Sequence record: OP745617
From: Escherichia phage F13
DNA: 64,000 nt
Direction: 5' to 3' (one strand)
Both the position numbers and the translations under genes were made by a program. Below, in pieces: positions 1,276-18,345 of this stretch (position 1 is the first letter of the stretch; each line of letters begins with the position of its first letter). The notes under the pieces are model-generated. The model ran no database searches, was not told where the DNA came from, and was given only the letters and a program-made list of their open reading frames with translations.

Positions 1276-1539
1276 ATAAACACTGTTTACGTGTTTTGAA
1301 GAATGGAATGTGTGCAATGGGTCGCTTTATGCGGCCTTTTGTCGTTTGGGTCATGTTTTGCTATGGAATAATTATGAGGTTGTGTTTTATTTATTAATTG
1401 TGCGGAAATATTTAGAAATATATATAAACAGGATTGTTAATATTTTAATAGTTTATGGCTATTGGTCCGTGGTGTTTGTTAGATTCTATCTATGGATTGG
1501 ATTTTCTTGGGTCGTGAAACGTGGTTTTGAACACATTTG

Positions 1540-1990
1540 ATACGCCTAAAATACGGTTAAAAATTAAGCGTATCATGGCTGCAGGCCGCGCCGTTCCTGG
1601 ATTCCTCTTTTCCAAATTGGTACACCCTTACGTCATGATACGTCATGGTTTTTTATCCGTATCAGTGTACAACCCTTGCCGCGCCTGGCTTGTACATTAA
1701 TCTTACGGATGATACGGATAAAACTGAGCATCGTTATATATAGAATTCGAAAAATTAATTAACTCCATTTTAAAAACATTTATATTAATTTTTTTCATAT
1801 CCTCATACTTATGTTAATTTATATATTTAACGTATCATCCGTAAGATATAAGTAAAAACAAAGACTTGCGGCAATACGGATGATACGTCATGATACGCTT
1901 CAACCAGCCAGCAGCGGCTAAGTCGTTGATTTGCATAACAAGCGGCAAAAGGGATGGATTTCTTTTATACGTATCAAACAGTACACCACG
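1540..1990. repeat. Composite element A: AT-rich core (about 1735-1830) flanked by inverted repeats aatcttacggatgatacgg (1699-1718) and ccgtatcatccgtaagat (1831-1847), plus extra GGATGATACG-type copies (1629-1665, 1873-1898)
   Basis: Read directly; homologous to element B at 18055-18345 (shared aatcttacggatgatacgga and tatata-gaattc-aaa-ttaatt core). Confidence 0.8.
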
Positions 1991-2062
1991 CACCACGGTC
2001 CGTTATCCATTCAGCAATATGATTTGTGTACGTTTATAGCCATAATGAACATCAATCTGCAC

Positions 2063-2091
2063 TTGAATATAATGTCCATCCATTGTATAAT
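2063..2091 (+). promoter_or_regulatory. sigma70-like promoter with extended -10 (TTGAAT-N17-TGTATAAT) upstream of the TerS-like gene
   Basis: Hexamers and spacing read from sequence; the transcribed leader would contain two AATTTGCACTATG motifs. Confidence 0.4.
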
Positions 2092-2111
2092 TCACACTAT
2101 TAATTTGCACT

Positions 2112-2600
2112 ATGGGATTTTGCACTATGAGTCAAGATTATGTAGCGATGCCTGAAGACTTTGAAGACCCGCGATTCGCAGAGCACAATCAGGCTTTATT
2201 CGATGAGTTCATTGACCTTGTTATTCAGGGTCATGACATGCGCGCAGCTTTTGCACTAGTATTTGGAATGGAAGTTGCAACGGATAACTACACTGGCCAG
2301 CGAATCCTTTGCACGCAACGCAATCCATACTACAAGATGCGCTTCAAAAAGCGTATGGAAGAGATGCCACTCAAGGATTTGTGGAGCGTAAAAGGTGCAA
2401 TTCACAATTTGGTTAAGCTTGTTCGTGATCCAGAAGTCGCGGCGTCAGCCAAGCTTAATGCTATTCGTGAACTGAATATCATCTACGGCATCACGATGAT
2501 TGATGAAAACGGCAATAGTAAAATGGGCCGTTCCATGGACGATTTCTACAAGGATTTTGGAGAGGCGGCCAAAGAAGGTGAGCAATTCTCCCGCCACTAG
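2112..2600 (+). CDS. terminase small subunit-like DNA-binding protein (possible start at 2127)
   Basis: About 160 aa; NQALFDEFIDLVIQGHDMRAAFALVFGM and C-terminal AKLNAIRELNIIYGI resemble TerS (Terminase_2-type) segments; recognised from memory only. Confidence 0.4.
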   Translation: MGFCTMSQDYVAMPEDFEDPRFAEHNQALFDEFIDLVIQGHDMRAAFALVFGMEVATDNYTGQRILCTQRNPYYKMRFKKRMEEMPLKDLWSVKGAIHNLVKLVRDPEVAASAKLNAIRELNIIYGITMIDENGNSKMGRSMDDFYKDFGEAAKEGEQFSRH

Positions 2601-2619
2601 CCAATTTGCACTATAAAAC

Positions 2620-2654
2620 GGCCCTAGAACACATTTTCTCCAATTCTAGGGCCA
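2620..2654. terminator. Hairpin between convergent genes: perfect 10-bp stem GGCCCTAGAA/TTCTAGGGCC, 15-nt loop
   Basis: Inverted repeat read from sequence; no strong T-run, so terminator function is inferred from position. Confidence 0.4.
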
Positions 2655-2714
2655 TCGGTAATACGACGGGGAAGGTTACAAACATAAACGCGTTAGAAAG
2701 TGTATTATTATAAG

Positions 2715-2978
2715 TCATCTTTTAGTCACCTTACGTAACAATTTACGACCTTCAACCGTCCAATCGAACGACTCCACCAGCAGATTCGCACTATAACCTA
2801 AGACGATGCGTCCCTTCTCGTTATCGACCCGCCAACAAGTCTCGAATAGCATTCGATTTGCACTATTAACTATTGCCGCAACTCGCGTAGGATAAGCGCA
2901 ATTTGAACTATGGTCGTAAAGGGATAAGGTGCGACCACTTCCGATGGACAACGTAGCGATGAGAATGAGCGTATTCAT
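2715..2978 (-). CDS. doubtful ORF (87 aa) overlapping three copies of the AATTTGCACTAT motif
   Basis: Has a possible GGTGG RBS, but the motif copies inside suggest the region may be regulatory rather than coding. Confidence 0.2.
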   Translation of the reverse strand: MNTLILIATLSIGSGRTLSLYDHSSNCAYPTRVAAIVNSANRMLFETCWRVDNEKGRIVLGYSANLLVESFDWTVEGRKLLRKVTKR

Positions 2979-3028
2979 AAGCCACCAATTTGCACTATGA
3001 AAAGCGACCCCGAAGGGCCGCCATTCGA

Positions 3029-3655
3029 TTAGATAATCTGGAAGGTATAGGATTTGTTGCCGAACTCAAAGTTCAAGCGCCCAGCTTCCTTAAGCTTCAT
3101 GCGGAAGCGAATGTGCTTGCTATCCGGCAAGCCCAGCACGGCGAACGCTACGCGGACCGATTTGAACTCGCCTACACCCTCGACCATAACGCCGTTACGG
3201 GTGAGACGCTTTTGCGCCACTTCCTTATTATCCCAACTTTTTGCAATACCTTCGCTATTCGAACGGCGATGGGAAGGAGTTCCATTTTGCACTACGCAAT
3301 TTGCACTATCGTTTAGACCGCTCTTAACGAAGGCTTCATACTCTTCGTCGGTCATCGCGTCGAGTTCTTCCTGGGTCGGCTCGGCCTTTTTAACGACCGC
3401 ACGCGCCTTATGCGTTTTTACATCGCTGGACACTTCCTCGCGCGACTTCGCTTCGGGGATGGGCGATTCGTTGGACGGCTCATCGAGCGCGTTTAAGGAC
3501 TCGATTAACGCGATTACGCGAGTCTCGGCGGTACGGCGGTCCGCAAATTTCTTAATCGGCTTCGAACCGGAATTTGCATTATAAAATGCAACGAGGTCGG
3601 CGGTCTTAGTTGCGATAACGTCGCCGCTAGTCGAGAAACGATTTAAGCTAACCAT
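3029..3655 (-). CDS. hypothetical protein (208 aa)
   Basis: AGGAG RBS upstream of ATG at 3655; contains two tandem motif copies on the opposite strand and the TTTGCATT-N4-AATGCAAA palindrome near its 5' end. Confidence 0.6.
   Translation of the reverse strand: MVSLNRFSTSGDVIATKTADLVAFYNANSGSKPIKKFADRRTAETRVIALIESLNALDEPSNESPIPEAKSREEVSSDVKTHKARAVVKKAEPTQEELDAMTDEEYEAFVKSGLNDSANCVVQNGTPSHRRSNSEGIAKSWDNKEVAQKRLTRNGVMVEGVGEFKSVRVAFAVLGLPDSKHIRFRMKLKEAGRLNFEFGNKSYTFQII
3573..3592. promoter_or_regulatory. Palindromic operator-like site TTTGCATT-ATAA-AATGCAAA
   Basis: Perfect 8-bp inverted arms with 4-bp spacer; a dyad version of the AATTTGCA motif. Confidence 0.35.
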
Positions 3656-3735
3656 AATGAACTCCTATTTGTTAGGGCGCTAGGCGCGAAAGAATTTTAT
3701 TAAAGCGCCGCGCACGACGCTCTAAAAATCCTCTC

Positions 3736-4020
3736 TTACGCTTCGACGAGGGAGAAGGTCTCAAATTCTTCTTCGCCCATAACGAGTAAGATGTTACCGA
3801 TTTCGACCGCTTCGAAGAAGTATCCGTTAACGTTTACTTCGAAGGCTTCGCGGTCCGATTCCGGTAACGCCGCGTAAAGTTTAAAAGCCTCGGCGACCGT
3901 TACCCCACCCGCCTCGATGGTCTGGTCTACGTTCGCGGCGTAGACTTCGGATAAAATTTGTTTTACGCCGTAGTTCTCGACGATAGCGTTACGGATGGAA
4001 GAAACGTTAAGAATAGCCAT
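3736..4020 (-). CDS. small early protein, paralog family member A (94 aa)
   Basis: AGGAG RBS; preceded on the minus strand by the conserved promoter/hairpin cassette; MAILNVSSIR…EVYAANVD…VNGYFFEAVEIG aligns with the 4958-5248 product. Confidence 0.6.
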   Translation of the reverse strand: MAILNVSSIRNAIVENYGVKQILSEVYAANVDQTIEAGGVTVAEAFKLYAALPESDREAFEVNVNGYFFEAVEIGNILLVMGEEEFETFSLVEA

Positions 4021-4088
4021 TTTAAACTCCTAGTTGGGAGAGGCGTTAACGACCTATTCGCTAACTCATCCCGTCCCGATATGAGTAC

Positions 4089-4116
4089 ATTATAATATAG
4101 TGTAGAAAAAAGTAAA
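4089..4116 (-). promoter_or_regulatory. sigma70-like promoter (TTTACT-N16-TATAAT) of the conserved early cassette, minus strand
   Basis: Reverse complement of 4021-4128 is nearly identical to the plus-strand cassettes at 4548-4655 and 4851-4957. Confidence 0.5.
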
Positions 4117-4160
4117 GCACTTTTTCGATAAAAATGCGATAAATTATTTTATCTTTTTTC

Positions 4161-4188
4161 TTTACTTCTTCGTACACTCGCGTATACT
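4161..4188 (+). promoter_or_regulatory. sigma70-like promoter (TTTACT-N16-TATACT), diverged copy of the early cassette, divergent to the minus promoter
   Basis: CTTTACTTCTTCGTACACT shared with the other cassettes; followed by a GGGC…GCCC hairpin and a GGGAG RBS. Confidence 0.45.
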
Positions 4189-4244
4189 TGTTTATATCGA
4201 GACGGGCGATGGCCCTTCCTTCTACTAGCATCGGGAGCTTTATT

Positions 4245-4547
4245 ATGACTACTTTAATCTCTTCCATCCTTACTTACGACGAAGACCGTTTAACCGTTCG
4301 CTCTCTTATCGCCGCCGTTAACGCCGAACTAGAATCTAGCGCCATTAAGGTCCGCGCGGTTGCCTTCGTCGGTCTTTCCTTCGACGATATCAAGTACGCC
4401 GAACGTAGCGCCATCCGCTTCGCGAAGACCGACGACGAAGCCGTTACCCTTATCGAGACGGTTACTCCGCGCGGCGAAACGTTAATTATCGTCGAGTATA
4501 TCGACGTAGAAGGCGATAAGGCTTATAAATATTTTATCGCAAAATAA
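4245..4547 (+). CDS. small early protein, paralog family member B (100 aa)
   Basis: ATG at 4245 with GGGAG RBS (the track's 4188 start is a TTG inside the -10 element); N-terminus MTTLISSI resembles the paralogs; 3' two-thirds lies in the tandem duplication. Confidence 0.6.
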   Translation: MTTLISSILTYDEDRLTVRSLIAAVNAELESSAIKVRAVAFVGLSFDDIKYAERSAIRFAKTDDEAVTLIETVTPRGETLIIVEYIDVEGDKAYKYFIAK

Positions 4548-4558
4548 CGAAAAAGTGC

Positions 4559-4587
4559 TTTACTTCTTAGTACACTAAGACTATAAT
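4559..4587 (+). promoter_or_regulatory. sigma70-like promoter TTTACT-N17-TATAAT (cassette copy 1)
   Basis: Near-consensus -10 and 17-bp spacer; followed by the 5' UTR hairpin at 4610-4630 and AGGAG at 4644-4648. Confidence 0.55.
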
Positions 4588-4609
4588 GTTTTATATCGAG
4601 AGGGGATGA

Positions 4610-4630
4610 GGTAGCGAATAGGTCGCTACC
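4610..4630 (+). ncRNA. Conserved 5' UTR stem-loop (GGTAGCGA-ATAGG-TCGCTACC)
   Basis: Perfect 8-bp stem; the minus-strand copy (GTTAGCGA/TCGTTAAC) keeps pairing through a compensatory U-A and a G-U wobble. Confidence 0.5.
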
Positions 4631-4655
4631 CTCCCGACTAACTAGGAGAATATTA

Positions 4656-4850
4656 CGCGCGGTTGCCTTCGTCGGTCTTTCCTTCGACGATATCAAGTAC
4701 GCCGAACGTAGCGCCATCCGCTTCGCGAAGACCGACGACGAAGCCGTTACCCTTATCGAGACGGTTACTCCGCGCGGCGAAACGTTAATTATCGTCGAGT
4801 ATATCGACGTAGAAGGCGATAAGGCTTATAAATATTTTATCGCAAAATAA
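4656..4850 (+). pseudogene. Duplicated 3' fragment of gene 4245-4547 lacking a start codon
   Basis: Second repeat unit encodes RAVAFVGLSF…KYFIAK in frame, but the position matching the ATG of gene 4958 reads ACG (4655-4657). Confidence 0.45.
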
Positions 4851-4861
4851 CGAAAAAGTGC

Positions 4862-4890
4862 TTTACTTCTTAGTACACTAAGACTATAAT
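4862..4890 (+). promoter_or_regulatory. sigma70-like promoter TTTACT-N17-TATAAT (cassette copy 2, drives gene 4958-5248)
   Basis: Identical to copy 1 (offset 303 bp); hairpin at 4913-4933, AGGAG at 4947-4951. Confidence 0.55.
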
Positions 4891-4957
4891 GTTTTATATC
4901 GAGAGGGGATGAGGTAGCGAATAGGTCGCTACCCTCCCGACTAACTAGGAGAATATT

Positions 4958-5248
4958 ATGATCACTTTATCCGCTATCCGTGCCGCTCGCGTCGAAACTT
5001 CCGAAAACTCTAACGTATTTGGCGAAACCTTAGAGAGCGTTTATCTCTCTAACGTTGACGCGATTATCGAGTCTATTTATGAGCCGATCAACTTCCTCGA
5101 CCTTTACAAGTATCGCGATGAGGACATCGTGTCCTACCGCGTAACGATTAACGGCTTCGTTTATACGATTACCGAAATCGGCGGCGAATATCTCGCTGTA
5201 CCGCAACTCGGCGGCGAAGTAACTTACTTTAAAATCGTAAGCCTTTAA
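4958..5248 (+). CDS. small early protein, paralog family member C (96 aa)
   Basis: ATG with AGGAG RBS; clear similarity to the 3736-4020 product (IR-A-VE, VY-NVD-IE, NG-xxE-EIG). Confidence 0.6.
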   Translation: MITLSAIRAARVETSENSNVFGETLESVYLSNVDAIIESIYEPINFLDLYKYRDEDIVSYRVTINGFVYTITEIGGEYLAVPQLGGEVTYFKIVSL

Positions 5249-5259
5249 GGAGAAGAAAA

Positions 5260-5469
5260 ATGATTAATATGAATAACTCTCTTAACGCGCGCGCCCATCG
5301 CACCGCCGTCATCGATATGTTCCGTGAGCTTAAGGACTTATGCGATAATATGAACGCGATGTTATCCATCGGCGGCTGGGGATACGAAGAAGAAGTTAAA
5401 TATGCGGTTATGCGTCGCCGTCGCGATAACGTCCTTGGGCAAATTAAACGCGCCGGATTATTCCTTTAA
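5260..5469 (+). CDS. hypothetical small protein (69 aa, basic)
   Basis: AAGGAG RBS 8 nt upstream of ATG; followed by an intrinsic terminator. Confidence 0.55.
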   Translation: MINMNNSLNARAHRTAVIDMFRELKDLCDNMNAMLSIGGWGYEEEVKYAVMRRRRDNVLGQIKRAGLFL

Positions 5470-5495
5470 TTATAATCAACCACCGTTACTAATAG

Positions 5496-5517
5496 GCCGC
5501 GCTTAGTCGCGGCTTTT
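5496..5517 (+). terminator. Rho-independent terminator (GCCGCG-cttagt-CGCGGC followed by TTTTCTT)
   Basis: GC stem plus T-run directly after stop of gene 5260-5469. Confidence 0.6.
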
Positions 5518-5638
5518 CTTCGTCCCTATCTCGGTGCGCTCCTACGCGAAAACTCCTTTATCCTTCCCTTCGTCGTCGCATAATCTTCGTCGATATGCGC
5601 CTTAGTTCGCATAACAGGTATTACGTTAAATGGAGAAC

Positions 5639-5715
5639 ATCGCGTAAGTCCTTGTTTTATATAGACACCTATATCGGACCGTTAGGGCGGGTCGCGTAAG
5701 TCGTTGTTTTATAAA
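5639..5715. repeat. Direct repeat pair (A/G)TCGCGTAAGTC(C/G)TTGTTTTATA (5639-5663 and 5691-5715)
   Basis: Two 25-nt near-identical copies 52 bp apart in a 700-bp ORF-free region. Confidence 0.6.
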
Positions 5716-5838
5716 GGCGCAAAACTTTCCCTTCGTTCCGAACTAAAACGAGGAATATGCCGACCCTTCGTCCGAAAATAGTACGCATGCGAAATTACAT
5801 GCATCTAGAATAATCCCCACAGATATTATCCTACACGC

Positions 5839-5903
5839 AATCATTCGCTTTCGAATCATTATGCTTCATATTATTATGCGTCGAATCATTCGCTTTCGAA
5901 TTG
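5839..5903. repeat. Direct repeat pair ATCATTCGCTTTCGAAT (5840-5856 and 5885-5901)
   Basis: Read directly; each unit contains a TTCGAA palindrome. Confidence 0.6.
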
Positions 5904-5991
5904 TAACGCTGGAAACTGTAACGGCGATTGATTATTGCGTTCGTGTGGTTTTTATGGCATGGGTCTTTTGGTGCGTTTTGCTACTTGATGG

Positions 5992-6103
5992 AATTTGCGG
6001 TACACTAATCAAAATACGACACATTTAGTCTACTAACTTTTCAAAGAAAAAGTCCTGGACAGTACCGTACTATTTTGTACCCACAGGAAATTTGCAGTAC
6101 ACT
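5992..6103 (+). repeat. Variant motif pair AATTTGC(G/A)GTACACT (5992-6006 and 6088-6103)
   Basis: Shares AATTTGC with the 2.1-3.6 kb motif family and GTACACT with the early promoter cassette. Confidence 0.5.
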
Positions 6104-6183
6104 CCTGCGCGCGGCAGGCAAAATAAAGGGCCGCACCAAGCGACCCACGATTCACGATTCACGGTTAAAGCAACATCCACCCA

Positions 6184-6564
6184 CTATTCACTCTTATGGG
6201 CATCACCAAATCCATCAGCAATCTGGCTGATCAACGACTCAATGGACACAGTTTTACCAATTGATCGAGCGGTTATGGCGAGCATATTATCAATCAAACC
6301 ATGATTGACACAATACTCTGGAGATTTAGAATCATCTTCAGAACAACCAAAAAGCTGGTCGCGCAGACTTTCAAGAGAACGCTCAATATTTTCCAACTTC
6401 TCTTCTAAATCGGATTGGCGACGTAAAACCCATGTTAAGTCTCGGTTGCCGACTTCCAACCCATCAGAATAGCAAGGTGGAGCGTCAATTTTGATGCTGG
6501 AACCAAAAGCAGTGCCGCTGCCTTTAGTATAAGTATGGCTCATAGAATCATTTTTATTTGACAT
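6184..6564 (-). CDS. hypothetical protein (126 aa from ATG 6564)
   Basis: Last gene of the minus-strand block; internal ATG with weak AAGG RBS chosen over the track start. Confidence 0.45.
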   Translation of the reverse strand: MSNKNDSMSHTYTKGSGTAFGSSIKIDAPPCYSDGLEVGNRDLTWVLRRQSDLEEKLENIERSLESLRDQLFGCSEDDSKSPEYCVNHGLIDNMLAITARSIGKTVSIESLISQIADGFGDAHKSE

Positions 6565-6661
6565 ATCATTACCTTTAATATTTGGGTGATTAACAATAAC
6601 TATAATAAAGCCGCATAGCGCGGCATTCAAATCGATTTATTAATTGTGACGATTGGATTCA

Positions 6662-6856
6662 TCAATCGATACCAACTGAGCCGATGTGCTGAAAGAACTC
6701 TGAATAAACTTCCTTCCAGTACTTACGCGCTGCTTTCTGGGCTTGTCCTTTGCGCTTGAAGCTTTTGCCTTGAAAGATGAAACGGTCGCTTGTCGCGCGA
6801 TACTCCACCACACCTTCCAGCCATTGTAAGAATGCTACTGATTCATTTTTATTCAT
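6662..6856 (-). CDS. hypothetical small basic protein (64 aa)
   Basis: GAGGT RBS 5 nt upstream of ATG. Confidence 0.5.
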   Translation of the reverse strand: MNKNESVAFLQWLEGVVEYRATSDRFIFQGKSFKRKGQAQKAARKYWKEVYSEFFQHIGSVGID

Positions 6857-6863
6857 TTCAACC

Positions 6864-7259
6864 TCAATATTTTAATAAGAAAGCACCCAACCAACTTTCC
6901 TCAACCTCGCGGCCAGTAGCCACACGGTCGGTCTTGGCTATGGGTCTGGATTCGCCGCAGGGCAACCCGTCTTGTAGTTGTGTACTATTGCCAATTCTCA
7001 CCAGAACCTTTCCATCAGGGTCGATATAAGCGCGACAACCCATGATTTCGAGTCGTTGTAGACACTGGCGAATCGTTTTCAGCTTCTCACCGGACCGGAT
7101 AGAGCGCGGTCGCGACCGCTGACCGTTCTTATTTACTGTACGCTTGAAGACCGGAATATCATTGGTGCGTTGCGGCTTGGGTCGGTAGTAGGCTTCTTCG
7201 CCAGGAGTCGCACCTGGCGTCAATTCGCGCTTGAGCGCCTTTTCAATATCAATGATCAT
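6864..7259 (-). CDS. hypothetical protein (131 aa from ATG 7259)
   Basis: Start placed at MIIDIEK, just downstream of the stop of the small upstream ORF (coupling); the track's N-terminal extension overlaps other ORFs. Confidence 0.45.
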   Translation of the reverse strand: MIIDIEKALKRELTPGATPGEEAYYRPKPQRTNDIPVFKRTVNKNGQRSRPRSIRSGEKLKTIRQCLQRLEIMGCRAYIDPDGKVLVRIGNSTQLQDGLPCGESRPIAKTDRVATGREVEESWLGAFLLKY

Positions 7260-7261
7260 AA

Positions 7262-7360
7262 TTATGCCGCAGCAGCGTGAATTATTGCGTAAACAATTCC
7301 TAACAGGGCGACAACGCAAACAGTGCCCCAAAATGCAAAGCGTCGTGCCTCTTTATCCAT
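7262..7360 (-). CDS. possible small membrane peptide (32 aa, MDKEARRFAFWGTVCVVALLGIVYAIIHAAAA)
   Basis: Single hydrophobic helix; GGTGG-like RBS; sits between two coupled genes. Confidence 0.25.
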   Translation of the reverse strand: MDKEARRFAFWGTVCVVALLGIVYAIIHAAAA

Positions 7361-7640
7361 TGTCCACCGCCCCAATATCCATGAAATTAAAAACCAATTT
7401 CGCCATTTCATCTTGTGAAATGACATTATAGTGCTTAGGCAAATCGCTTTCTGATAATACCTTCTGGGCTTCTTCTTTTGTCTCAAAGAGAGGGATGCAC
7501 CAGTTTACTGCTTCACCAGATTCATTACTGTCTACTTGCTTTAAAAAGACCAAGCGGTTATCTTCAGGATCAATGCCGCAGATGACGTATTTTGGCAATG
7601 CTTTTGCTTTTTGAGTCTTATCAATATCTTCAAATTTCAT
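7353..7640 (-). CDS. hypothetical protein (95 aa from ATG 7640)
   Basis: GAGGTG RBS upstream of ATG 7640. Confidence 0.5.
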   Translation of the reverse strand: MKFEDIDKTQKAKALPKYVICGIDPEDNRLVFLKQVDSNESGEAVNWCIPLFETKEEAQKVLSESDLPKHYNVISQDEMAKLVFNFMDIGAVDNG

Positions 7641-7721
7641 AATACACCTCACTTGTTAACGTATAATGAGTATAACTTAATAGCGCATAAAGTAAAGGCG
7701 CTTTTCAGCGCCTTGAGTGAA

Positions 7722-10031
7722 TTATTTTGCTGATTTCAGCGCGGCTATCTCTGCCTTGAGTTCACCTATCTGATCCATGAGTGCAAGAATAGCCTCGTGG
7801 TGCAATGCCGCTGCCACTCCGTAAGTGTCGACTGATTTGACATCCTTGACCACGGTCCCATCAGCCAGTTCCATATCACCTGAAACAGAAACGGCTTCTG
7901 GGAAATCAACCTCAACATCTTGAGCCACGAATCCAAAACCTACTTTCGCGCCGTCAGTTTTCAATCGCCATGACACGCCATTAATCCTTTTCATCTTGGT
8001 CAATGGGTCTTGAATCTTGACAATCTCATCCTTGATTCTGACGTCTGAAGAAGTACCCCAACCGCCAGCGCAAACAGCATTACCTGCTTGCAGGAATTGG
8101 AAATACTTGTTGGTGCCTACACCGCCAGCAGTAGTGGTCATTATGGTCACATCGCCATTACGCTCAGAATATACCCGACCATACGTTGCTGTGTTGGCAC
8201 TGTTCTTAAAATCGATGAACGATTGGTTGTTGGTGTTTCCAATGAACGTCGCTTGACCGCCGCGAGTTATCAACTGGCCTTTTGCATCAACGTTCCCAGA
8301 GCTGGTGATCAAGTTATTTGGCACAAGCAAGTTGCCGTTGTCGACAAAATCGAATGCCTGGCTGGCGGCAGTCGTCAAATTGGTAACGGTCAATCGCATG
8401 TAATAAGCGCCACCGATAACAGCGCGAATGCGCATGCGACCTTCAGCCTCAACAGCAGTCCCCACTCGATACTCCGACATGACGCTGCCGCCGTCAGCGG
8501 TCGTGCCTGGACCTGGCATTGCCGTATCGCCGTTTATAACAGACCATTGCGTATTCGCCGCTGTGAATCCACCGGATGCACGAATCACCCAAACGCCTGA
8601 AAAGTTGCGCGGCAATACTTCATCTGTTGCAAGGTTGTTACGACCGTAAGCTGGGCTTGAGTTAGAAGCTCTTAGCGCAACGCTTCCCAAAGAGTTCGCA
8701 CCAGAACTTAAAAGCGAAACACCTCTTACATATCGCGGAATGGTGAATCCTTCTCCATTGATGAATGCGCCGCCAGCACCTGCGACAACCGTTCCTGATG
8801 CTGGTTCACTTGCAGGGCCGGACCCGTGGAAGTTGATGTTGCCAGTGATGTTTGGCAGGAAGGATTCCATTATCATTCCGTCATTTGACGAGTTGCCGCC
8901 ATCGCCACGGGCAAAAAGTGCACGAACACTTCCTGTCTGAACGCCGTTACGGTCTGGAACACGGAATGTTGTTGTTCCGTTGCCTAAAGAATACTTTCCG
9001 CGCTTCAGCGGGTCAGCCAACCAATCTGCATCAGCAATAGGCGTAAGCATTTGCGCATAAGCCCAAAGCTCAGGCCAGTCTGCACGGTTAAGCAATTGTC
9101 CGTCGGCAACAACTTCATACGACTGAATATAGGCGCGACTGTCGCGCAGGTGAAAGTCACCAACGCCATAGTTCATTACGCCGTTCATGCTTGGGCCAAC
9201 GGTGCCAGTATTTACTAAGTTCTCAACCCAACGCTTCGTCGCGGCATCATAATCATTGACGGGGTCGCCAGCCAGTGGTGTTGAGCCTTGTGGACGAATA
9301 TTCAACCATGCTTGCGCATTGTCTGCTGATCCTGTGCCGCCCATGGAAGTTGGAACGATGCTCTGATCAGCAACAGGGCCAAATCCAAAGGCATCTTTCA
9401 TTCCCTGAATAGTCGTTTGACCTGTGCCGCCGTTTGCAATTGGAATTGTGCTTTGTGAACTATAAATTTGCGCCCAAGGCGACCATGAAGATGTTTCAGC
9501 ATTGTACCTTCTTTGGTACAAGTTATTTGAGTTGAATGTGGTGTATCTTTGAATGCAACTTTCCAAAGATATGGCAGTCTGCAGGACTTCCAATATCCCA
9601 GCTTCCAAGGCTACTGGATAGTTGAGGGATGTCTGCGCAGCAGCATTTGAATATTGGTAATATTGCCCAAACCAAGTTCCAGTCAAAGAGTTCAGATTTA
9701 TCCCCGACGGCAAAAGTCCAAAATTCCTGACAGTATTGGTCAAAGATGCGGCAGTTGTTCGAATGGAAAGCATGTCGCCTGCCGCCCATGCGCGCGCTGC
9801 AGTTCCTTCCTGTGCACGCTGCACAGTCAGGACGTTCCCAACCACGGCTGTTACAGTGATGATTTCAAATTGGAGGCCTGTTGCAGCGTCGACGATTGTC
9901 GCCACTACACGCTCGTTTGCACCCAAGGTCGGAAAGCCCGACCCTGAGCGGATTGTGATTGTGGTGTCTGAAGTCGTCGCTGGCTGAGCGAGCGCGACCT
10001 CAAAGTTGTTTTTGAATATTAGCCTTGGCAT
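7722..10031 (-). CDS. tail fibre/tail spike protein with C-terminal intramolecular chaperone (S74-type) domain
   Basis: 769 aa, Gly/Thr/Ser/Asn-rich; C-terminus has SDVRIKDEI…DGAKVGFGFVAQDVEVDFPEAV, typical of the auto-cleaving chaperone domain of phage fibres; GAGGA RBS. Confidence 0.7.
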   Translation of the reverse strand: MPRLIFKNNFEVALAQPATTSDTTITIRSGSGFPTLGANERVVATIVDAATGLQFEIITVTAVVGNVLTVQRAQEGTAARAWAAGDMLSIRTTAASLTNTVRNFGLLPSGINLNSLTGTWFGQYYQYSNAAAQTSLNYPVALEAGILEVLQTAISLESCIQRYTTFNSNNLYQRRYNAETSSWSPWAQIYSSQSTIPIANGGTGQTTIQGMKDAFGFGPVADQSIVPTSMGGTGSADNAQAWLNIRPQGSTPLAGDPVNDYDAATKRWVENLVNTGTVGPSMNGVMNYGVGDFHLRDSRAYIQSYEVVADGQLLNRADWPELWAYAQMLTPIADADWLADPLKRGKYSLGNGTTTFRVPDRNGVQTGSVRALFARGDGGNSSNDGMIMESFLPNITGNINFHGSGPASEPASGTVVAGAGGAFINGEGFTIPRYVRGVSLLSSGANSLGSVALRASNSSPAYGRNNLATDEVLPRNFSGVWVIRASGGFTAANTQWSVINGDTAMPGPGTTADGGSVMSEYRVGTAVEAEGRMRIRAVIGGAYYMRLTVTNLTTAASQAFDFVDNGNLLVPNNLITSSGNVDAKGQLITRGGQATFIGNTNNQSFIDFKNSANTATYGRVYSERNGDVTIMTTTAGGVGTNKYFQFLQAGNAVCAGGWGTSSDVRIKDEIVKIQDPLTKMKRINGVSWRLKTDGAKVGFGFVAQDVEVDFPEAVSVSGDMELADGTVVKDVKSVDTYGVAAALHHEAILALMDQIGELKAEIAALKSAK

Positions 10032-10069
10032 TTTACGGTCCTCGTTTTGTCGACAACCGTATTATAACC

Positions 10070-10411
10070 TTAATTTCTTTTGAGAGGAATATGACGGTGG
10101 CTGCCATTATTTGGTTTAATAATGAGCATAAAAACGATTAGAAAGATGATGGCTGATATACTTAATTCAATCAGCGCGGCTTGAGATATAGATTGATCTT
10201 CGTGATACTGCTTTTGCATTTCTGCTTTCTTCTGAGCGCAAACTTCAGGTGATATGTAATCGCCTTTTGAGTTGCCATAATAAATTTCGCCGTTTTCAGA
10301 AATCAGTCTGCCGCAAATATCCGTTTCAGCCTTTGCACTTGACATCATAATAACGGTGCCGATAATAGCGGCGATAGTCCAGATTAACAGTTGTGATAAA
10401 GTGTTGTTCAT
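10070..10411 (-). CDS. secreted/membrane-anchored protein (N-terminal signal peptide, C-terminal TM helix)
   Basis: ATG 10411 with AGAGG RBS; MNNTLSQLLIWTIAAIIGTVIMMSSAKA signal-like, C-terminal ALIELSISAIIFLIVFMLII helix. Confidence 0.5.
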   Translation of the reverse strand: MNNTLSQLLIWTIAAIIGTVIMMSSAKAETDICGRLISENGEIYYGNSKGDYISPEVCAQKKAEMQKQYHEDQSISQAALIELSISAIIFLIVFMLIIKPNNGSHRHIPLKRN

Positions 10412-10428
10412 GATAACCTCTTTAAATT

Positions 10429-10449
10429 CCCTTCCCATATCGGGAAGGG
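10429..10449 (-). other. GC-rich hairpin (CCCTTCCC-atatc-GGGAAGGG) in the 5' leader of gene 10070-10411
   Basis: Perfect 8-bp stem about 17 nt upstream of the start codon on the minus strand. Confidence 0.4.
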
Positions 10450-10607
10450 TGATAATTATTTTACGCGAAAGAATAGGCGCGTGCCACACAGCGAGTCCCA
10501 ACGGCCTTCACCATCCCATACCGACCCAACGCCAGCGGTGATGACACCAGCAGAATTGGCGGCATTGGCCCAGGCGAGTCGTTTCAGCTTCCAACTACAC
10601 CAACGAT

Positions 10608-10841
10608 TCACAGTTCATCTCCAGATTGCAGAACAAGTCCCGCATAGAGGATTGCCAAGGCCAAAGGTGCACCACCACCAGCCTCTCTATTCTCTTTGAT
10701 TTGAAGAGTATCCTTAAGGAATTGCAGCTGAACGTTGAATTCACTTTCAATTCCAAGCACTCTAGCCAATTCTTTTACAGAATCTGCATATGCCTTGTCT
10801 AGCACTTCTTTTGGTACTGTTAAGGTTAATTCATTTGCCAT
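10608..10841 (-). CDS. hypothetical protein (77 aa from ATG 10841)
   Basis: Start chosen at MANELTL…; part of the minus-strand operon. Confidence 0.45.
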   Translation of the reverse strand: MANELTLTVPKEVLDKAYADSVKELARVLGIESEFNVQLQFLKDTLQIKENREAGGGAPLALAILYAGLVLQSGDEL

Positions 10842-11052
10842 TTTCTTTCCACTCCACAAATGTGTTGCCGCTTGTTTCTCTGTTTAGCAGGTATCTGCCG
10901 CGCATCCCATGAAGGCTGAACTCAACCGTCGATGGATTAGATTTTGAAAGCCATATAGGCTGCCCGTCGAATGGACCGCCTACGCATGTATATTTCGCTT
11001 TTGGCTCACTCCTTTTGGGCCGTTTTGCCCGCTCTTTGATTGATAGTCTCAT
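10831..11052 (-). CDS. hypothetical protein (73 aa, basic N-terminus)
   Basis: AAGGTG RBS; overlaps neighbours by a few nt. Confidence 0.4.
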   Translation of the reverse strand: MRLSIKERAKRPKRSEPKAKYTCVGGPFDGQPIWLSKSNPSTVEFSLHGMRGRYLLNRETSGNTFVEWKENGK

Positions 11053-11267
11053 CAGTCTTCACCTTGAGATTCCAGACAAGTAAGGACAAGCCAAGTCATC
11101 GGAAGAATCAAAACCAGAGAAATGAGGGACCAGATAGACCAGCACAGGATGACAGACTTGAATGTGTGAACGTCGCCAAACGCAGCAGTAAAACAGAATC
11201 CCATTACAAATGCAATAGCGGTGGAATGGTTGTCTATGGCTTTGATGGCACGGTCGATGAGTTTCAT
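11052..11267 (-). CDS. small membrane protein (71 aa, two predicted TM helices)
   Basis: GGAGG RBS; hydrophobic segments AIAFVMGFCFTAAF and ILCWSIWSLISLVLILPMTWLVL; first gene of the minus operon. Confidence 0.45.
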   Translation of the reverse strand: MKLIDRAIKAIDNHSTAIAFVMGFCFTAAFGDVHTFKSVILCWSIWSLISLVLILPMTWLVLTCLESQGED

Positions 11268-11349
11268 ATTACCTCCGGTTTTGAGTTAATATGATTATAA
11301 CGCAGAGTCTCAGAAAGGCAAACTTTTTGTGAATTTTAATCAAAAAAAA

Positions 11350-11370
11350 TGGCCAGAAAAAAATCTGGCC
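11350..11370. other. Hairpin GGCCAGA-aaaaaaa-TCTGGCC in the divergent promoter region
   Basis: Perfect 7-bp stem with A-rich loop between the minus operon and terL. Confidence 0.35.
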
Positions 11371-11416
11371 GAAAGATCACCCTTTATCCACTACTAAGCT
11401 GGAATCATAATTTTAC

Positions 11417-11446
11417 TTGATATAGCTTGTACAAGCAAACTATAAT
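11417..11446 (+). promoter_or_regulatory. sigma70-like promoter TTGATA-N18-TATAAT immediately upstream of terL
   Basis: Hexamers read from sequence; the -10 abuts ATG 11447, so the real terL start may be the in-frame ATG at 11480. Confidence 0.4.
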
Positions 11447-12907
11447 ATGAATAAAATATTAACACATAATTGGAAATTCATGTACCAGTTGAATCCTGCT
11501 TTAAAAGAAGTCTGGAAGACAAAAGCGCGATACAAAGTAATATACGGCGGTCGTGCATCTTCCAAATCGCACGATGCCGCTGGTTTTGCTATTTATTTGG
11601 CGGCAAACTTCAAATTAAAATTCCTTTGCGTTCGACAATTCCAGAACAAAATTTCTGAATCTGTATATACTCTATTAAAAGACAAAATAGAGATTTCTGA
11701 TTTCAAAGATGAGTTCAATTTATTAAAGAACTCTATTGAACATAAAAGAACTAAATCTGAATTTCTATTTTACGGTATCGCACGTAACGTTGATGAAATT
11801 AAATCAACAGAAGGTGTTGACGTCCTTTGGCTGGAAGAAGCGCACGCGCTTACTGAAGAACAGTGGGACATTATTGAGCCGACAATCCGTAAAGAAGGGT
11901 CCGAAATATGGATCATCTTTAACCCCGATGAAGAGGCCGATTTTGTCTACCAAAACTTTGTTATGCGACCGCCGAAGAATGCCATTGTTAAAAAGATAAA
12001 CTGGCAAGACAATCCATTTTTGTCGCAAACGATGCTGGACGTTATTGCAGGCATGTACGAGCGCGACCCGAAAAAGGCAGAGCACGTTTATGGCGGCGTG
12101 CCGAAGACTGGCGGCGATAAATCTGTAATCAACCGCGCATTCGTTAAGGCCGCGCTTAATCTCCACAAACACCCTACGCTGGGATGGAGTTTGTCAGGGT
12201 CTAACCGTATAGGCTTTGACGTAGCGGACGATGGCGACGACCTTAACGCCACTGCATTCGTTACAGGAAACGTATTGCGCGGCATCAAGACATGGGAAGG
12301 TCTGGAAGATGAATTGTTAAAATCGGCAAGCGGAGTTTGGAAAGATGCGCTTACATTTGGCGCTTCTATAACTTATGACGCCATCGGTGTCGGCGCTTTT
12401 GCTGGTTCAAAATTTGATGAACTGAACGAGTATGCAATACATGAAAATCCATCATTTCCAAGAATCGAATTTAATGCGTTCAATGCGCAAGGGTCTGTTG
12501 ATGATCCTGATGACGTTTTTCTTGAATTACCACACGTTGAAATACTCAATAAAGACCATTTCGCAAACATAAAAGCGCAAAAGTGGACTGAAATTGCAGA
12601 GAGATTCAGAAAGACATACGAATATGCAACTGGGCAAGCCGTATATCCGACTGATGAGTTGATTTCAATCGACACCGATGGCATACCAGAACTTGGAATT
12701 CCAGCTTGGACTACTGAAGAGATTGAGACGTTTCTTTTTGAGATGTCAGCGCCGCGCAAAGATACGTCTGTTCTTGGCAAGTTCAAAGTTGAATCTAAAA
12801 AGGATATGGCAAAGCGTGGAGTCAAATCACCTAACAAAGCGGACGCGGCAATCATGGCATTAATGAAACCAATCGTTGCAGCATCCGGCTTCTTCTCTAA
12901 CCTTTAA
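11447..12907 (+). CDS. terL: terminase large subunit (alternative start 11480)
   Basis: Walker A YKVIYGGRASSKSH, Walker B-like VDVLWLEEAH, size 486 aa and position at the head of the morphogenesis module. Confidence 0.85.
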   Translation: MNKILTHNWKFMYQLNPALKEVWKTKARYKVIYGGRASSKSHDAAGFAIYLAANFKLKFLCVRQFQNKISESVYTLLKDKIEISDFKDEFNLLKNSIEHKRTKSEFLFYGIARNVDEIKSTEGVDVLWLEEAHALTEEQWDIIEPTIRKEGSEIWIIFNPDEEADFVYQNFVMRPPKNAIVKKINWQDNPFLSQTMLDVIAGMYERDPKKAEHVYGGVPKTGGDKSVINRAFVKAALNLHKHPTLGWSLSGSNRIGFDVADDGDDLNATAFVTGNVLRGIKTWEGLEDELLKSASGVWKDALTFGASITYDAIGVGAFAGSKFDELNEYAIHENPSFPRIEFNAFNAQGSVDDPDDVFLELPHVEILNKDHFANIKAQKWTEIAERFRKTYEYATGQAVYPTDELISIDTDGIPELGIPAWTTEEIETFLFEMSAPRKDTSVLGKFKVESKKDMAKRGVKSPNKADAAIMALMKPIVAASGFFSNL

Positions 12908-12910
12908 CAA

Positions 12911-13150
12911 TCAAAGCATTCCGTGCTGAAGGTCTAGTTTTCTTGCAGCAAATGACCTGGCACGGAATCGCTTACCCGCCCTTACTGCCTGCCGAATCTT
13001 CTTTTGCATACACTTACGGTCAAAATCGTTGCGGTCAACGGCTTCGAGTAAATCCCGACGCAAAGCACCTAGTGTCGCCTTTTCGGATAATTCTACGCCC
13101 AGCGCGGCTGCAACGTCTTTCAAAACATCGAGTTCGGTTAACGTTCTCAT
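12911..13150 (-). CDS. hypothetical protein (79 aa, basic C-terminus)
   Basis: Minus-strand ORF coupled (ATGA) to the 13147-13563 gene, wedged between terL and portal. Confidence 0.4.
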   Translation of the reverse strand: MRTLTELDVLKDVAAALGVELSEKATLGALRRDLLEAVDRNDFDRKCMQKKIRQAVRAGKRFRARSFAARKLDLQHGML

Positions 13151-13563
13151 TTGATAATCCCCTTGATGTCTGATTCTGCCATAAAGATTGGAGTGCCGCC
13201 GCCAGGAACAATCGAGCGCGTTACTTTGTCGAACATATCGTTTTCTTCAACTTGAATACGATAAAATTTATTCTTGGATGAAGATGGGCACAATTCCATA
13301 AATTTACCAATGCCGCGAACGCATTCATCTTCAAAGTATACTGTTTCACCTTGAATGGATTCGATGTTTTCAACCGGATACACCTTGCGACCTAAAAGCC
13401 ATTCATCCATGGTCGCCTGCAACACGCTTCTCGCATCCAAAATCCAAGGGTCAACTGTGGCACCTTCATATCGCGCAGCAGTGGCTTTTGCCAGCTCTTC
13501 ATATTCGCATACGTTTACTACTTCGCCTTGATGAAGGACGACAAATACAATTGTTGTGCTCAT
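13147..13563 (-). CDS. hypothetical protein (138 aa)
   Basis: AGGAG RBS upstream of ATG 13563; opposite strand to the flanking structural genes. Confidence 0.5.
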   Translation of the reverse strand: MSTTIVFVVLHQGEVVNVCEYEELAKATAARYEGATVDPWILDARSVLQATMDEWLLGRKVYPVENIESIQGETVYFEDECVRGIGKFMELCPSSSKNKFYRIQVEENDMFDKVTRSIVPGGGTPIFMAESDIKGIIK

Positions 13564-18054: not shown

Positions 18055-18345
18055 AGTTTTATACGTATAATGACGTATCATCCGTATCAAGTAAGTTGTT
18101 GTTTTCAAAAGAATCTTACGGATGATACGGATGATACGCGTTGCCGCCGTACTATATAGGAATTCAAATAAATTAATTTAAAATTATATATCTAATTTAA
18201 TTTTATTTTTTTATAAACTCTTATATATATGAAAAGTATCCGTATCATCCGTATCATCCGTAGCACACCAGTGATAGCGCGGCTTATACACCGATACGGA
18301 TAAAAATACGCCTCATTTTATCCGTATCATCCGTATCACACTAAT
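18055..18345. repeat. Composite element B: AT-rich core (about 18153-18236) flanked by inverted repeats TACGGATGATACGGATGATACG (18117-18139) and CGTATCATCCGTATCATCCGTA (18241-18262), extra copies at 18072-18091 and 18316-18340
   Basis: Read directly; homologous to element A. Confidence 0.8.

Follow-up and report, generated by a model that had tools for sequence, protein, structure and literature searches.

Separated terminase genes and the physical genome end in the Wifcevirus phage F13

Why do the genes for the small and large terminase subunits of Escherichia phage F13 lie about 9 kb apart? An earlier note on a 64,000-nucleotide stretch of this phage's DNA (record OP745617; hereafter, the window) had placed a TerS-like gene at 2112-2600 and terL at 11447, parted by a mainly opposite-strand region, and had offered two explanations: either the small terminase gene was miscalled, or the packaging region had received an accessory island. 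Both positions were confirmed, with a gap of 8,846 nt when counted to 11447 and 8,879 nt when counted to 11480. The region was also correctly described as mainly opposite-strand, because an ORF tally gives ~5.97 kb of minus-strand coding (2715-4177 and 6184-11267) versus ~0.84 kb of plus-strand coding (4209-5469). The best explanation of the data as a whole, to which we give a probability of roughly 0.85, is that TerS is genuine and of the E217 type, that the split is ancestral, and that terS would be kept linked to the DNA site on which its product acts.

Nucleotide comparison identifies the phage as a Wifcevirus myophage. Escherichia phage vB_EcoM_SP13 (SP13) matches the window at 100% identity and itself has a terS-terL gap of 8,577 nt, and the Wifcevirus records Mansfield, WFC, WFH and ECML-117 share 91-94% nucleotide identity with gene order unchanged. 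The features discussed below are collected in Table 1.

Table 1. Features of the terminase region of phage F13, with positions in the window
Feature	Position	Strand	Basis or detail
Element A	1569..1897		Six iterons and inverted-repeat arms around a ~110-nt AT-rich centre
Direct terminal repeat (DTR), single copy within the window	1767..5968		SP13 1-3899 = 68486-72384 at 100%
Putative sigma-70-like promoter, terS	2063..2091	+	TTGAAT-17-TATAAT, 10/12 matches, consensus scan
TT(T/C)GCACTA(T) box array	2104..3582	+	Nine strict, eleven at <=1 mismatch
terS, E217-type small terminase subunit	2127..2600	+	PDB 7UXE match, E 6e-34
Small ORF, 87 aa, hydrophobic signal-like N-terminus	2715..2978	-	Hydrophobicity
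phrog_4730 protein, 208 aa, conserved convergent terS neighbour	3029..3655	-	phrog_4730, E 3.7e-88
Small DTR gene, paralogue of 4958-5248	3736..4020	-	BLASTP
Small DTR gene, 3' part in first copy of the 303-bp duplication	4209..4547	+	
Perfect tandem duplication, 2 x 303 bp	4353..4958		Tandem Repeats Finder, 100% match
Small DTR gene, paralogue of 3736-4020	4958..5248	+	BLASTP
Predicted transcriptional regulator, 69 aa, inside DTR	5260..5469	+	phrog_10377, E 2.1e-36
Right DTR boundary (5968) and preceding 15-nt tandem repeats (5839-5901)	5839..5968		GAATCATT type
Predicted minus-strand transcription block	6128..11321	-	Nine ORFs >=60 aa, including tail fibre
Tail fibre, second and variable, 769 aa	7722..10031	-	phrog_6921, E 9.5e-206
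Predicted membrane protein, two hydrophobic segments	10070..10501	-	Kyte-Doolittle scan
Predicted small membrane protein, first gene of minus-strand block	11052..11267	-	Kyte-Doolittle scan
Putative sigma-70-like promoter, terL	11417..11446	+	TTGATA-18-TATAAT, 11/12 matches, consensus scan
terL, large terminase subunit	11480..12907	+	ORF opens 11447
Element B, second copy of iteron-flanked AT-rich element	18074..18333		Upstream of head maturation protease gene

Identity of the terminase genes

The terL product matches PF04466 (E 3.2e-37) and TIGR01547 (136.9 bits; cutoff, 105) and, among PDB structures, E217 TerL (8DKR, E 5.8e-84) and Sf6 gp2 (E 7.5e-64). Its start is more likely at 11480, the annotated position, because the putative promoter stops right at 11447.

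The small subunit carries no such label. Its ORF opens at 2112 (162 aa), and the start annotated in public records is 2127 (157 aa). Searches of Pfam and NCBIfam returned no match, so no curated TerS model recognises the protein, and its PHROG family (phrog_4783, E 1.9e-75) is annotated "unknown function". A phmmer search of the PDB, however, aligned residues 7-152 of the query with residues 6-150 of the 189 in the chain of 7UXE ("Small terminase", a decamer), which a review table identifies as E217 TerS. The orthologue is annotated "terminase small subunit" (361-834) from HHpred in the Mansfield record and is labelled hypothetical in most other Wifcevirus records, SP13 included. Judged by homology, then, ORF 2127-2600 encodes a genuine small terminase of the E217 type, which refutes the suggestion that the call is wrong. 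We regard it as very unlikely that the 157-aa protein is instead some other early DNA-binding protein, with the true TerS located elsewhere or absent. The silence of the family databases could be read that way, as could the gene's setting, downstream of a strong sigma-70-like promoter and within a repeat packed with small genes that look early, and the review's statement that E217 TerS has no appreciable DNA binding in vitro, but such a reading must contend with full-core homology to a solved ring-shaped small terminase and with conservation of the protein in 358 phage records of the group. Nor is there a rival candidate beside terL, where the small flanking ORFs on the opposite strand gave no TerS-like matches. 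The assignment of E217 TerS was itself based on ring architecture and overexpression effects.

Gene order and the block between terS and terL

The order terS, convergent phrog_4730 gene, opposite-strand block and terL is found in five genera (Pbunavirus, Kylevirus, Bcepfunavirus, Myosmarvirus and Wifcevirus) and in one unclassified Salmonella phage. The gap is 7.66 kb across the record junction in E217 (terS 59299-59868, terL 1233-2615), 9.26 kb in Pantoea phage Kyle (terS 357-839, terL 10101), 7.87 kb in Salmonella phage PCSE1 (terS 831-1298, terL 9165) and ~20.2 kb in BcepF1. E217, a Pbunavirus, offers the closest structural comparison, with homologous TerS (gp78, 41% identity by tblastn) and TerL (63% identity). 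The split must be ancestral to the PB1-like group because an opposite-strand block parts the two genes in every relative examined. By this synteny, the ~9-kb separation in F13 is ancestral PB1-like gene order, neither a mis-call nor a recent insertion. Such a layout is normal for the group and has already been reported, since a review puts the distance between terS and terL on the linear E217 map at ~58 kb. More generally, the packaging genes of these phages are separate transcription units among opposite-strand blocks of small, fast-evolving genes: terS and terL each have a putative sigma-70-like promoter of their own, and terL is followed by two opposite-strand genes and then the portal gene. 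At the place equivalent to the terS promoter, Kyle and MyoSmar have TTGACG/TTGACT-17-TATAAT.

What does vary is the cargo. By tblastn, terS, phrog_4730, terL and portal are conserved across relatives and the rest of the block is not. Kyle, E217, Spe5P4 and PCSE1 all carry, in the block that follows terS, a homologue of the phrog_4730 protein, which has no match in Pfam, NCBIfam or the PDB; apart from phrog_4730 and terS, the only gap-region gene with a homologue in another genus is 2715-2978, through a weak Kyle match. A tblastn comparison with Kyle, E217, PCSE1, BcepF1 and Spe5P4 gave no homologue for any ORF of the block at 6128-11321, which is bounded by a promoter-like site (11321-11294) and a terminator-like hairpin (6146-6128). 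Within it, the second tail fibre recognised in the earlier note was confirmed: the protein ends in a C-terminal intramolecular chaperone (Peptidase_S74, PF13884, E 5e-10) and corresponds to the second, variable, T-shaped fibre described for Wifcevirus in the BASEL paper. The accompanying "several membrane or secreted proteins" found weaker backing, in two clearly hydrophobic ORFs (10070-10501, with no Pfam or PHROG match, and 11052-11267, with no PHROG match) and one signal-like ORF (2715-2978, also with no PHROG match). Kyle carries an EPS depolymerase at the place equivalent to the tail fibre, and the E217 block has no receptor-binding gene. Judged from these comparisons, the block contents, tail fibre included, are accessory, genus-specific cargo, and an exchangeable receptor-binding gene is added to the variable block in the enterobacterial lineages.

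The idea of an inserted island thus survives only in its second half: the contents are accessory and lineage-specific, and the insertion itself fails on synteny. That an early cassette and tail-fibre operon recently came between adjacent terS and terL genes in this phage or genus is, in our estimate, highly improbable. Genus-specific block genes, a horizontally mobile receptor-binding gene and patchy coverage of this region among Wifcevirus genomes (59-88%) are what such an event might leave behind, but the same separation and strand pattern occur in Pbunavirus, Kylevirus, Bcepfunavirus and PCSE1, where TerS identity to the F13 protein is 31-43%, and none of the relatives examined has terS and terL adjacent. 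Only the block cargo turns over.

The physical end and the terminal repeat

Termini of the window were taken from public records and PhageTerm predictions. The physical left terminus falls at 1766|1767, the point at which the SP13, WFC and Mansfield records begin; window positions 1-1766 are the unique right end of SP13, and the window crosses a concatemer junction. The DTR measures 4,202 bp here versus 3,899 bp in SP13 because of the extra 303-bp duplication, which is absent from SP13 by blastn mapping and from Mansfield, WFC, WFH and ECML-117, and whose junction occurs in no public phage record. PhageTerm predicts DTRs of 3,673 bp in Mansfield (annotated 1-3673) and 3,559 bp in MyoSmar; the repeat is 3,603 bp in Kyle and ~3.7 kb in WFC and WFH. 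The terS gene lies inside the DTR, 345-360 nt from its left end at 1767, and starts 361, 357 and 387 nt from the DTR boundary in Wifcevirus, Kylevirus and Myosmarvirus relatives, respectively. Virion DNA of these three genera therefore has a 3.6-3.9 kb DTR with one boundary 345-390 nt upstream of terS, so that terS comes first from the physical end and each virion DNA carries it twice. The earlier note had missed both this nearby end and the location of terS inside the repeat.

Because the window runs over a genome end, the separation might be suspected of being an artefact of linearisation or assembly, the more so given the unrecorded 303-bp junction and the apparent distance of 58 kb on the E217 map. 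We consider this hardly credible: the SP13, WFC, Mansfield and Kyle records open at the physical end and run contiguously through terS at ~0.36 kb and terL at 9.4-10.1 kb, so the end does not fall between the two genes and the 9-kb gap is real on virion DNA.

The other DTR genes are small. The paralogues at 3736-4020 and 4958-5248 share 28% identity (BLASTP, E 1e-5), and inverted repeats I1 and I2 form their upstream regions; 4209-4547 has no PHROG match, and a terminator-like hairpin (5494-5515) follows the regulator gene. In Kyle, AATCATT/AATGATT occurs four times directly before the right boundary at 3603.

Repeat arrays beside terS and a possible packaging mechanism

The arrays beside terS have been undescribed until now. 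Element A holds six iterons (ATGATACG / CGGATGATACG) in both orientations and an inverted repeat, I5 (arms 1690-1716 and 1831-1857), and its AT-rich centre contains the left terminus. The iteron motif occurs 13 times in the window versus 1.74 expected, in only two clusters, the second being element B, which precedes the head maturation protease gene (18448-19869; phrog_3778, E 1.8e-171). Such A/B pairs, with genus-specific iterons, also occur in Kyle and E217. The GCACTA boxes form a different kind of array: all lie on the plus strand, often paired 14-15 nt apart, and span terS and the minus-strand genes that follow. All 11 window matches fall inside the array and none elsewhere in the 64 kb. 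Mansfield has ten boxes, and in Kyle 14 of the 19 plus-strand GCACTA hexamers lie 477-1478 nt from the left end.

We propose that terS has stayed linked to the DNA site on which TerS acts, as in the lambda cosN-cosB-Nu1 arrangement or a pac site inside terS, whereas terL, which encodes a sequence-independent motor, could take up a place among the head genes. The one-strand GCACTA array and/or element A, beside terS itself, would be where TerS rings assemble; the rings would recruit TerL, which would cut within the AT-rich centre, at 1766|1767, and package rightward to the far DTR boundary. The lack of appreciable in vitro DNA binding by E217 TerS weakens the step in which TerS binds boxes beside its own gene.

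A competing reading, which we rate at somewhat short of an even chance, is that elements A and B and the GCACTA boxes have nothing to do with packaging and serve transcription or replication instead, and that terS is at the end only because the DTR boundary chanced to evolve within an AT-rich promoter or origin region already present there. Replication origins typically have iterons surrounding an AT-rich centre. Each element is followed, 110-170 nt downstream, by the sigma-70-like promoter of a plus-strand gene (terS for A, the head protease for B), and the authors of the JG024 study predicted a sigma-70 promoter in the centre of element B. Moreover, because A is present in E217, reportedly a phage without a defined cut, and its second copy B lies far from any terminus, A may serve as a promoter or an origin rather than as a terminase site. 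Pulling the other way, the terminus lies in the AT-rich centre of an inverted-repeat-flanked element upstream of terS in 3/3 DTR genera even though their iterons differ, and the GCACTA and CCACCAGC arrays are one-stranded whatever the direction of the genes and turned up in those three genera only.

Several known systems invite comparison. In lambda, gene A directly follows Nu1, the cohesive ends are 12 nt and gpNu1 has been proven to bind cosB. Lambda resembles F13 in having a cut site, then a short-site array, then the small-terminase gene in the first few hundred bp from the left end, but in F13 the distance to terL is 9 kb, a long direct repeat forms the ends and TerS binding is something we infer. 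T5 and SPO1 are long-DTR phages, and T7 has short repeat arrays beside its terminal repeat. We know of no case in which the repeats of these three carry a small terminase gene, and their proteins are not homologous to those of F13 as far as tested; like F13, however, they have defined ends and DTRs, repeats with small genes behind host-type promoters, and short repeated sequences adjoining the repeat boundaries. E217 differs in another way, since Pbunaviruses are reported to be headful, circularly permuted packagers, whereas F13 has a ~3.9 kb DTR containing terS; the surroundings of E217 terS yielded no GCACTA array.

Separate promoters for terS and terL could also allow TerS to be made in small amounts, and through the box pair that overlaps the terS leader and start codon, TerS might regulate its own synthesis. 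A review reports that infectivity drops when E217 TerS is overexpressed, an effect that we count in favour as a point about dosage.

Identity of the two terminase genes

An earlier note had remarked that a TerS-like gene in the window is separated from terL by a mainly minus-strand stretch, and this arrangement is confirmed: both ORFs lie where they had been placed, and the 8.85 kb between them is mostly minus-strand coding (about 6.0 kb, as against 0.84 kb on the plus strand). Of the two explanations offered there, the first, that the TerS call is wrong, is contradicted by the match of the protein's full structured core to a solved small terminase. A sequence search of the PDB returned one strong match, 7UXE ("Small terminase"; E 6e-34, 120.5 bits), in a near-gapless alignment of query residues 7-152 to chain residues 6-150 of 189, and the depositing laboratory's review describes 7UXE as the decameric cryo-EM structure of TerS from the Pseudomonas phage E217 (genus Pbunavirus). 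A caveat is that the E217 assignment is itself based on ring architecture and overexpression effects, the review reporting no DNA binding in vitro. The orthologue in the GenBank record of the Wifcevirus phage Mansfield is labelled small terminase subunit, from HHpred. The profile check that the earlier note had proposed for this product supplied no functional TerS family label, and the PDB sequence search alone resolved its identity: no curated TerS profile in Pfam or NCBIfam matched the protein, and the family to which it belongs, phrog_4783 (E 1.9e-75), is labelled as of unknown function. As 7UXE is an entry of 2022 and the label hypothetical is attached to most homologues, the missing curated match reflects a gap in the libraries. 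Homologues were found by tblastn in 358 phage records, which span Pbunavirus, Wifcevirus and phages of Serratia, Pantoea, Burkholderia, Xanthomonas, Salmonella and Aeromonas. Among the annotations seen, a single one reads other than hypothetical. The small-terminase identity therefore helps annotation, since the record of the Wifcevirus phage SP13 and most of the others use that label. A single-sequence AlphaFold2 model of TerS (157 aa) was mostly helical, had an unusable pLDDT of 42.7 and was not taken into a fold search; we infer the fold only from the near-gapless 7UXE alignment. The small ORFs flanking terL were considered as alternative TerS genes and rejected, being on the opposite strand and having no terminase-like matches.

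Judged by its sequence, the terL product is unambiguously a large terminase of the Terminase_3/PBSX family, of the Sf6 gp2 and E217 TerL type. It scores 128.5 bits with PF04466 (cutoff 23.2) and 136.9 with TIGR01547 (cutoff 105.05), and it matches the solved structures 8DKR (E217 TerL, E 5.8e-84) and 4IDH (Sf6 gp2, E 7.5e-64). A promoter-like TTGATA-18-TATAAT ends at 11446, and the first ATG of the ORF directly follows its -10 box, which makes 11480 the likelier, and probably the real, terL start.

Positions of terminase genes, repeats and predicted signals in the window and in related phages
Feature	Phage or record	Position or length	Strand	Remark
TerS-like ORF	window	2112-2600	+	public records use second ATG, 2127
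terL ORF	window	11447-12907	+	start annotated in SP13 and Mansfield corresponds to 11480
terS; terL	E217	59299-59868; 1233-2615		gap 7.66 kb across record junction; published "58 kb" is on the linear map
terS; terL	Pantoea phage Kyle	357-839; 10101-11501		gap 9.26 kb
terS; terL	Salmonella phage UALMA_PCSE1	831-1298; 9165-10727		gap 7.87 kb
terS; terL	BcepF1	20082-20486; 70935-72314	-; -	gap about 20.2 kb
Iteron cluster A	window	1569-1897		around left terminus, which lies in ~110-nt AT-rich centre between inverted arms
Iteron cluster B	window	18074-18333		same architecture as A; 21-nt identical arms shared with A; before head maturation protease gene
Paired element	Kyle, NC_048796	69440-69740 (=1-180) and 17676-17956
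Paired element	E217, MF490240	58530-58807 and 12620-13132
Terminal repeat	Mansfield	3,673 bp		PhageTerm prediction
Terminal repeat	WFC and WFH	about 3.7 kb		records
Terminal repeat	Kyle	3,603 bp
Terminal repeat	MyoSmar	3,559 bp		PhageTerm
SP13 66719-68485	window	1-1766		mapping; unique right end of SP13
SP13 1-2889	window	1767-4655		mapping
SP13 2587 onward	window	4656 onward		mapping
Predicted promoter	window	2063-2091		before terS
Predicted promoter	window	11417-11446		before terL
Predicted promoter	window	11321-11294		heads minus-strand block
Terminator-like hairpin	window	1319-1337		closes upstream plus-strand operon
Terminator-like hairpin	window	5494-5515		closes plus-strand genes of terminal repeat
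Terminator-like hairpin	window	6146-6128		closes minus-strand block

Order of the packaging genes in related phages

The second explanation, that an accessory island was inserted between terS and terL, fails on synteny, as no relative examined has the pair adjacent. In each of them (E217, Kyle, UALMA_PCSE1 (hereafter PCSE1) and BcepF1) a block on the opposite strand comes after terS and before terL; in Spe5P4, terS and the phrog_4730 gene were located and terL was not. The window fits this PB1-like layout, with terS, a convergent gene for a phrog_4730 protein (208 aa, 3029-3655, minus strand), an opposite-strand small-gene block and then terL (11480-12907), and the stretch that follows (12911-13563 on the minus strand, then portal at 13693-16101) has the same order in Kyle and E217.

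When all ORFs of the window were compared by tblastn, homologues in other genera were found for terS, the phrog_4730 protein, terL and portal, together with weak Kyle matches for three small ORFs (2715-2978, 12911-13150 and 13147-13563), and the 6184-11267 operon, tail fibre included, had no homologue in the other genera compared. This operon does encode a second tail fibre, as the earlier note had proposed: ORF 7722-10031, which includes a Peptidase_S74 chaperone, is a tail fibre and corresponds to the second, variable, T-shaped fibre of Wifcevirus described in the BASEL study. The several membrane or secreted proteins also attributed to the block come down to two ORFs with clear transmembrane-like segments. 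At the place of the Wifcevirus fibre Kyle has an EPS depolymerase, and E217 has no receptor-binding gene at the equivalent place. The presence of the split in all relatives examined, combined with varying genes in the block, indicates that the framework is ancestral and that only its cargo turns over.

The split is real; it has an ordinary explanation, which is in print for the sister genus. With E217 as its cited case, the E217 review states that terS-terL proximity "is not a universal feature", the Banzai paper treats the separation as part of the conserved Pbunavirus architecture, and the BASEL paper describes Wifcevirus as a distant relative of Pbunavirus. The split corrects a reasonable expectation of adjacent subunit genes and, as given, matters little. 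Our main reading, to which we assign a probability of about 0.85-0.9, is that the window carries a genuine E217-type terS in an ancestral split order, and that this gene lies within the terminal repeat next to the genome end.

Genome ends and candidate packaging signals

By megablast against a phage collection, window positions 1-14000 are 100% identical to Escherichia phage vB_EcoM_SP13 (OP352608, genus Wifcevirus) and 91-94% identical to about 27 further Wifcevirus genomes. The SP13 record carries the same 3,899 bp at both ends (1-3899 identical to 68486-72384), and its mapping onto the window in three segments implies that the window crosses a concatemer junction into the terminal repeat. 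The direct terminal repeat (DTR) is placed at 1767-5968 by public records, the window itself carrying a single copy, and the records of SP13, WFC and Mansfield open at one shared nucleotide, window 1767. These records point to a long DTR with sharp boundaries. Because the left boundary falls just upstream of terS, the gene is the first at the physical end, within the repeat and diploid in virion DNA. Its start lies 361 nt from the boundary in Wifcevirus, 357 nt in Kyle (Kylevirus) and 387 nt in MyoSmar (Myosmarvirus), and this location in the terminal repeat, with a distance of 345-390 nt to the physical end conserved across the three genera, is, together with the arrays beside the gene, of more value than the split. 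Pbunaviruses are headful, circularly permuted packagers according to the Banzai paper and to PMC12345254. Just inside the right boundary lie AATCATT/AATGATT-type repeats (5839-5968 in the window, and likewise before this boundary in SP13; 3460-3603 in Kyle), which in the window are arranged as 4.2 tandem copies of a 15-nt unit.

The left terminus sits in an AT-rich, iteron-flanked element (A) that has a second copy (B) in the head-gene region. The window has 13 copies of the 8-mer ATGATACG where 1.74 would be expected, a count that no shuffle reached, and all of them fall in these two clusters. Kyle has an A/B pair at the same two places with other iterons, GGTTATT and GAATATCCGAA; in E217 the iterons of the pair are GTAATTTGG, and a stretch of 79 nt is 85% identical; and the MyoSmar terminus lies in an AT-rich palindromic centre between 16-nt inverted repeats. 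In Wifcevirus and Kyle it is the copy upstream of terS that holds the left DTR terminus. The iterons thus vary by genus and are shared between A and B in the window and in Kyle, the E217 pair sharing its own short matches, a pattern that points either to concerted evolution or to a binding protein particular to each genus. The paired element may serve as an origin, as a promoter-regulatory region or as a terminase site; in the JG024 study, AT-rich boxes were remarked on without a clear function being assigned, and a promoter was predicted within the B region. GC skew, tried as an origin locator, follows transcription direction and was of no help.

A second set of repeats overlies terS. When one mismatch to TTTGCACTAT is allowed, the window has 11 matches, nine of them strict, and all fall at 2104-3582 on the plus strand, with none elsewhere in the 64 kb. 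Since these GCACTA boxes, of the form TT(T/C)GCACTA(T), cross terS and the minus-strand genes that follow, they are a DNA-level signal. Mansfield keeps ten. Kyle has 14 of its 19 plus-strand GCACTA hexamers at 477-1478, plus nine CCACCAGC boxes, in an array region of 255-1972, and MyoSmar and Spe5P4 have four CCACCAGC boxes, the MyoSmar array lying 1105-1445 nt from the DTR boundary. Neither array was found near terS of E217, BcepF1 or PCSE1, and GCACTA or CCACCAGC arrays were found only in the three DTR genera. The one-strand repetition of the boxes, conserved across two genera, makes them candidate TerS recognition sites. Avoidance of GCACTA outside the array was also considered, and no significant depletion was seen under a third-order Markov expectation. 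We found no literature description of the A/B iterons, the boxes or the boundary repeats, the motif strings matching only unrelated primer sequences; nothing else looks undescribed apart from the location of terS in the terminal repeat and the conserved arrays that adjoin it.

The mechanism that we propose as the most likely is that terS stays linked to the site on which its product acts, leaving the gene for the non-specific motor, terL, free to sit with the head genes. In phage lambda the order is cosN-cosB-Nu1, and in some pac phages the pac site lies within terS, which is the same linkage as proposed here. TerS would load on the box array, on element A or on both, TerL would cut in the AT-rich centre of A, and DNA would then be packaged rightward as far as the distant DTR boundary. 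With promoters of their own for the two genes, the TerS dose may be kept low, and terS could be autoregulated through the pair of boxes that overlies its leader and start codon. The E217 review reports that excess TerS lowers infectivity. Against such a site model stand the twin element B, which is far from any end, the presence of element A in the headful Pbunaviruses, and the failure of E217 TerS to bind DNA in vitro; we hold the model only tentatively, with the odds somewhat against it. It seems rather unlikely that A (with its twin B and its genus-specific iterons) together with the GCACTA/CCACCAGC array as TerS loading site constitutes an undescribed set of packaging and end-forming signals of long-DTR PB1-like phages.

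If this proposal is correct, the clade would show how a single terminase lineage switched between two modes, headful in Pbunavirus and with exact long-DTR ends in Wifcevirus, Kylevirus and Myosmarvirus, with the small terminase genetically tethered to its own site and terL unlinked. Outside T7 there is, to our knowledge, little understanding of the steps that cut and duplicate long exact terminal repeats. A clade that combines headful and long-DTR packagers, homologous terminases, solved TerS and TerL structures and candidate sites would be a tractable system for repeat formation, and would aid the design of rebootable or engineered Wifcevirus and Pbunavirus therapeutic phages. The terminal-repeat terS and the conserved arrays merit a small experimental follow-up.

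Small genes and transcription signals of the repeat

A consensus scan predicted sigma-70-like promoters before terS and terL, at the head of the minus-strand block and at several small DTR genes. The main text of the 14-1 transcriptome paper makes no statement on the timing of terS. Among the small genes, 5260-5469 (plus strand) specifies a predicted transcriptional regulator of 69 aa (phrog_10377, E 2e-36), which is a candidate for binding to one of the motif sets. Two divergent genes, 3736-4020 (minus strand) and 4958-5248 (plus strand), are paralogous (28% identity, E 1e-5) with near-identical inverted upstream regions (4018-4082 and 4896-4960), and look like a duplicated early cassette within the DTR. 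In five genera the block downstream of terS includes a gene for the phrog_4730 protein, which is immediately convergent with terS in E217 and has a second copy directly beside terL (8651-9058) in PCSE1. The protein has no match in Pfam, NCBIfam or the PDB, and the 120 matches listed in a homologue search are all Wifcevirus copies at least 97% identical, F13_0023 being identical. It could be a packaging accessory factor.

The repeat also contains a perfect 2 x 303-bp tandem duplication (4353-4958), which overlaps ORF 4209-4547 in its 3' part and also takes in the promoter-like region ahead of ORF 4958-5248. SP13 has one copy of the unit, and the duplication junction occurs in none of 50,697 phage records; the duplication either arose very recently or is an artefact of assembly. 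Two 1-bp indels also separate the window from the SP13 record (within 1-1766 and 5969-6184, one of them just past the right DTR boundary), which indicates that the window sequence is not literally the SP13 GenBank entry. Finally, the hairpins at 1318-1340 (plus strand) and 6125-6147 (minus strand) are inverted copies of one 23-nt sequence (87% complementary). They bracket the repeat region, the first lying about 430 nt ahead of the left boundary and the second about 160 nt beyond the right.
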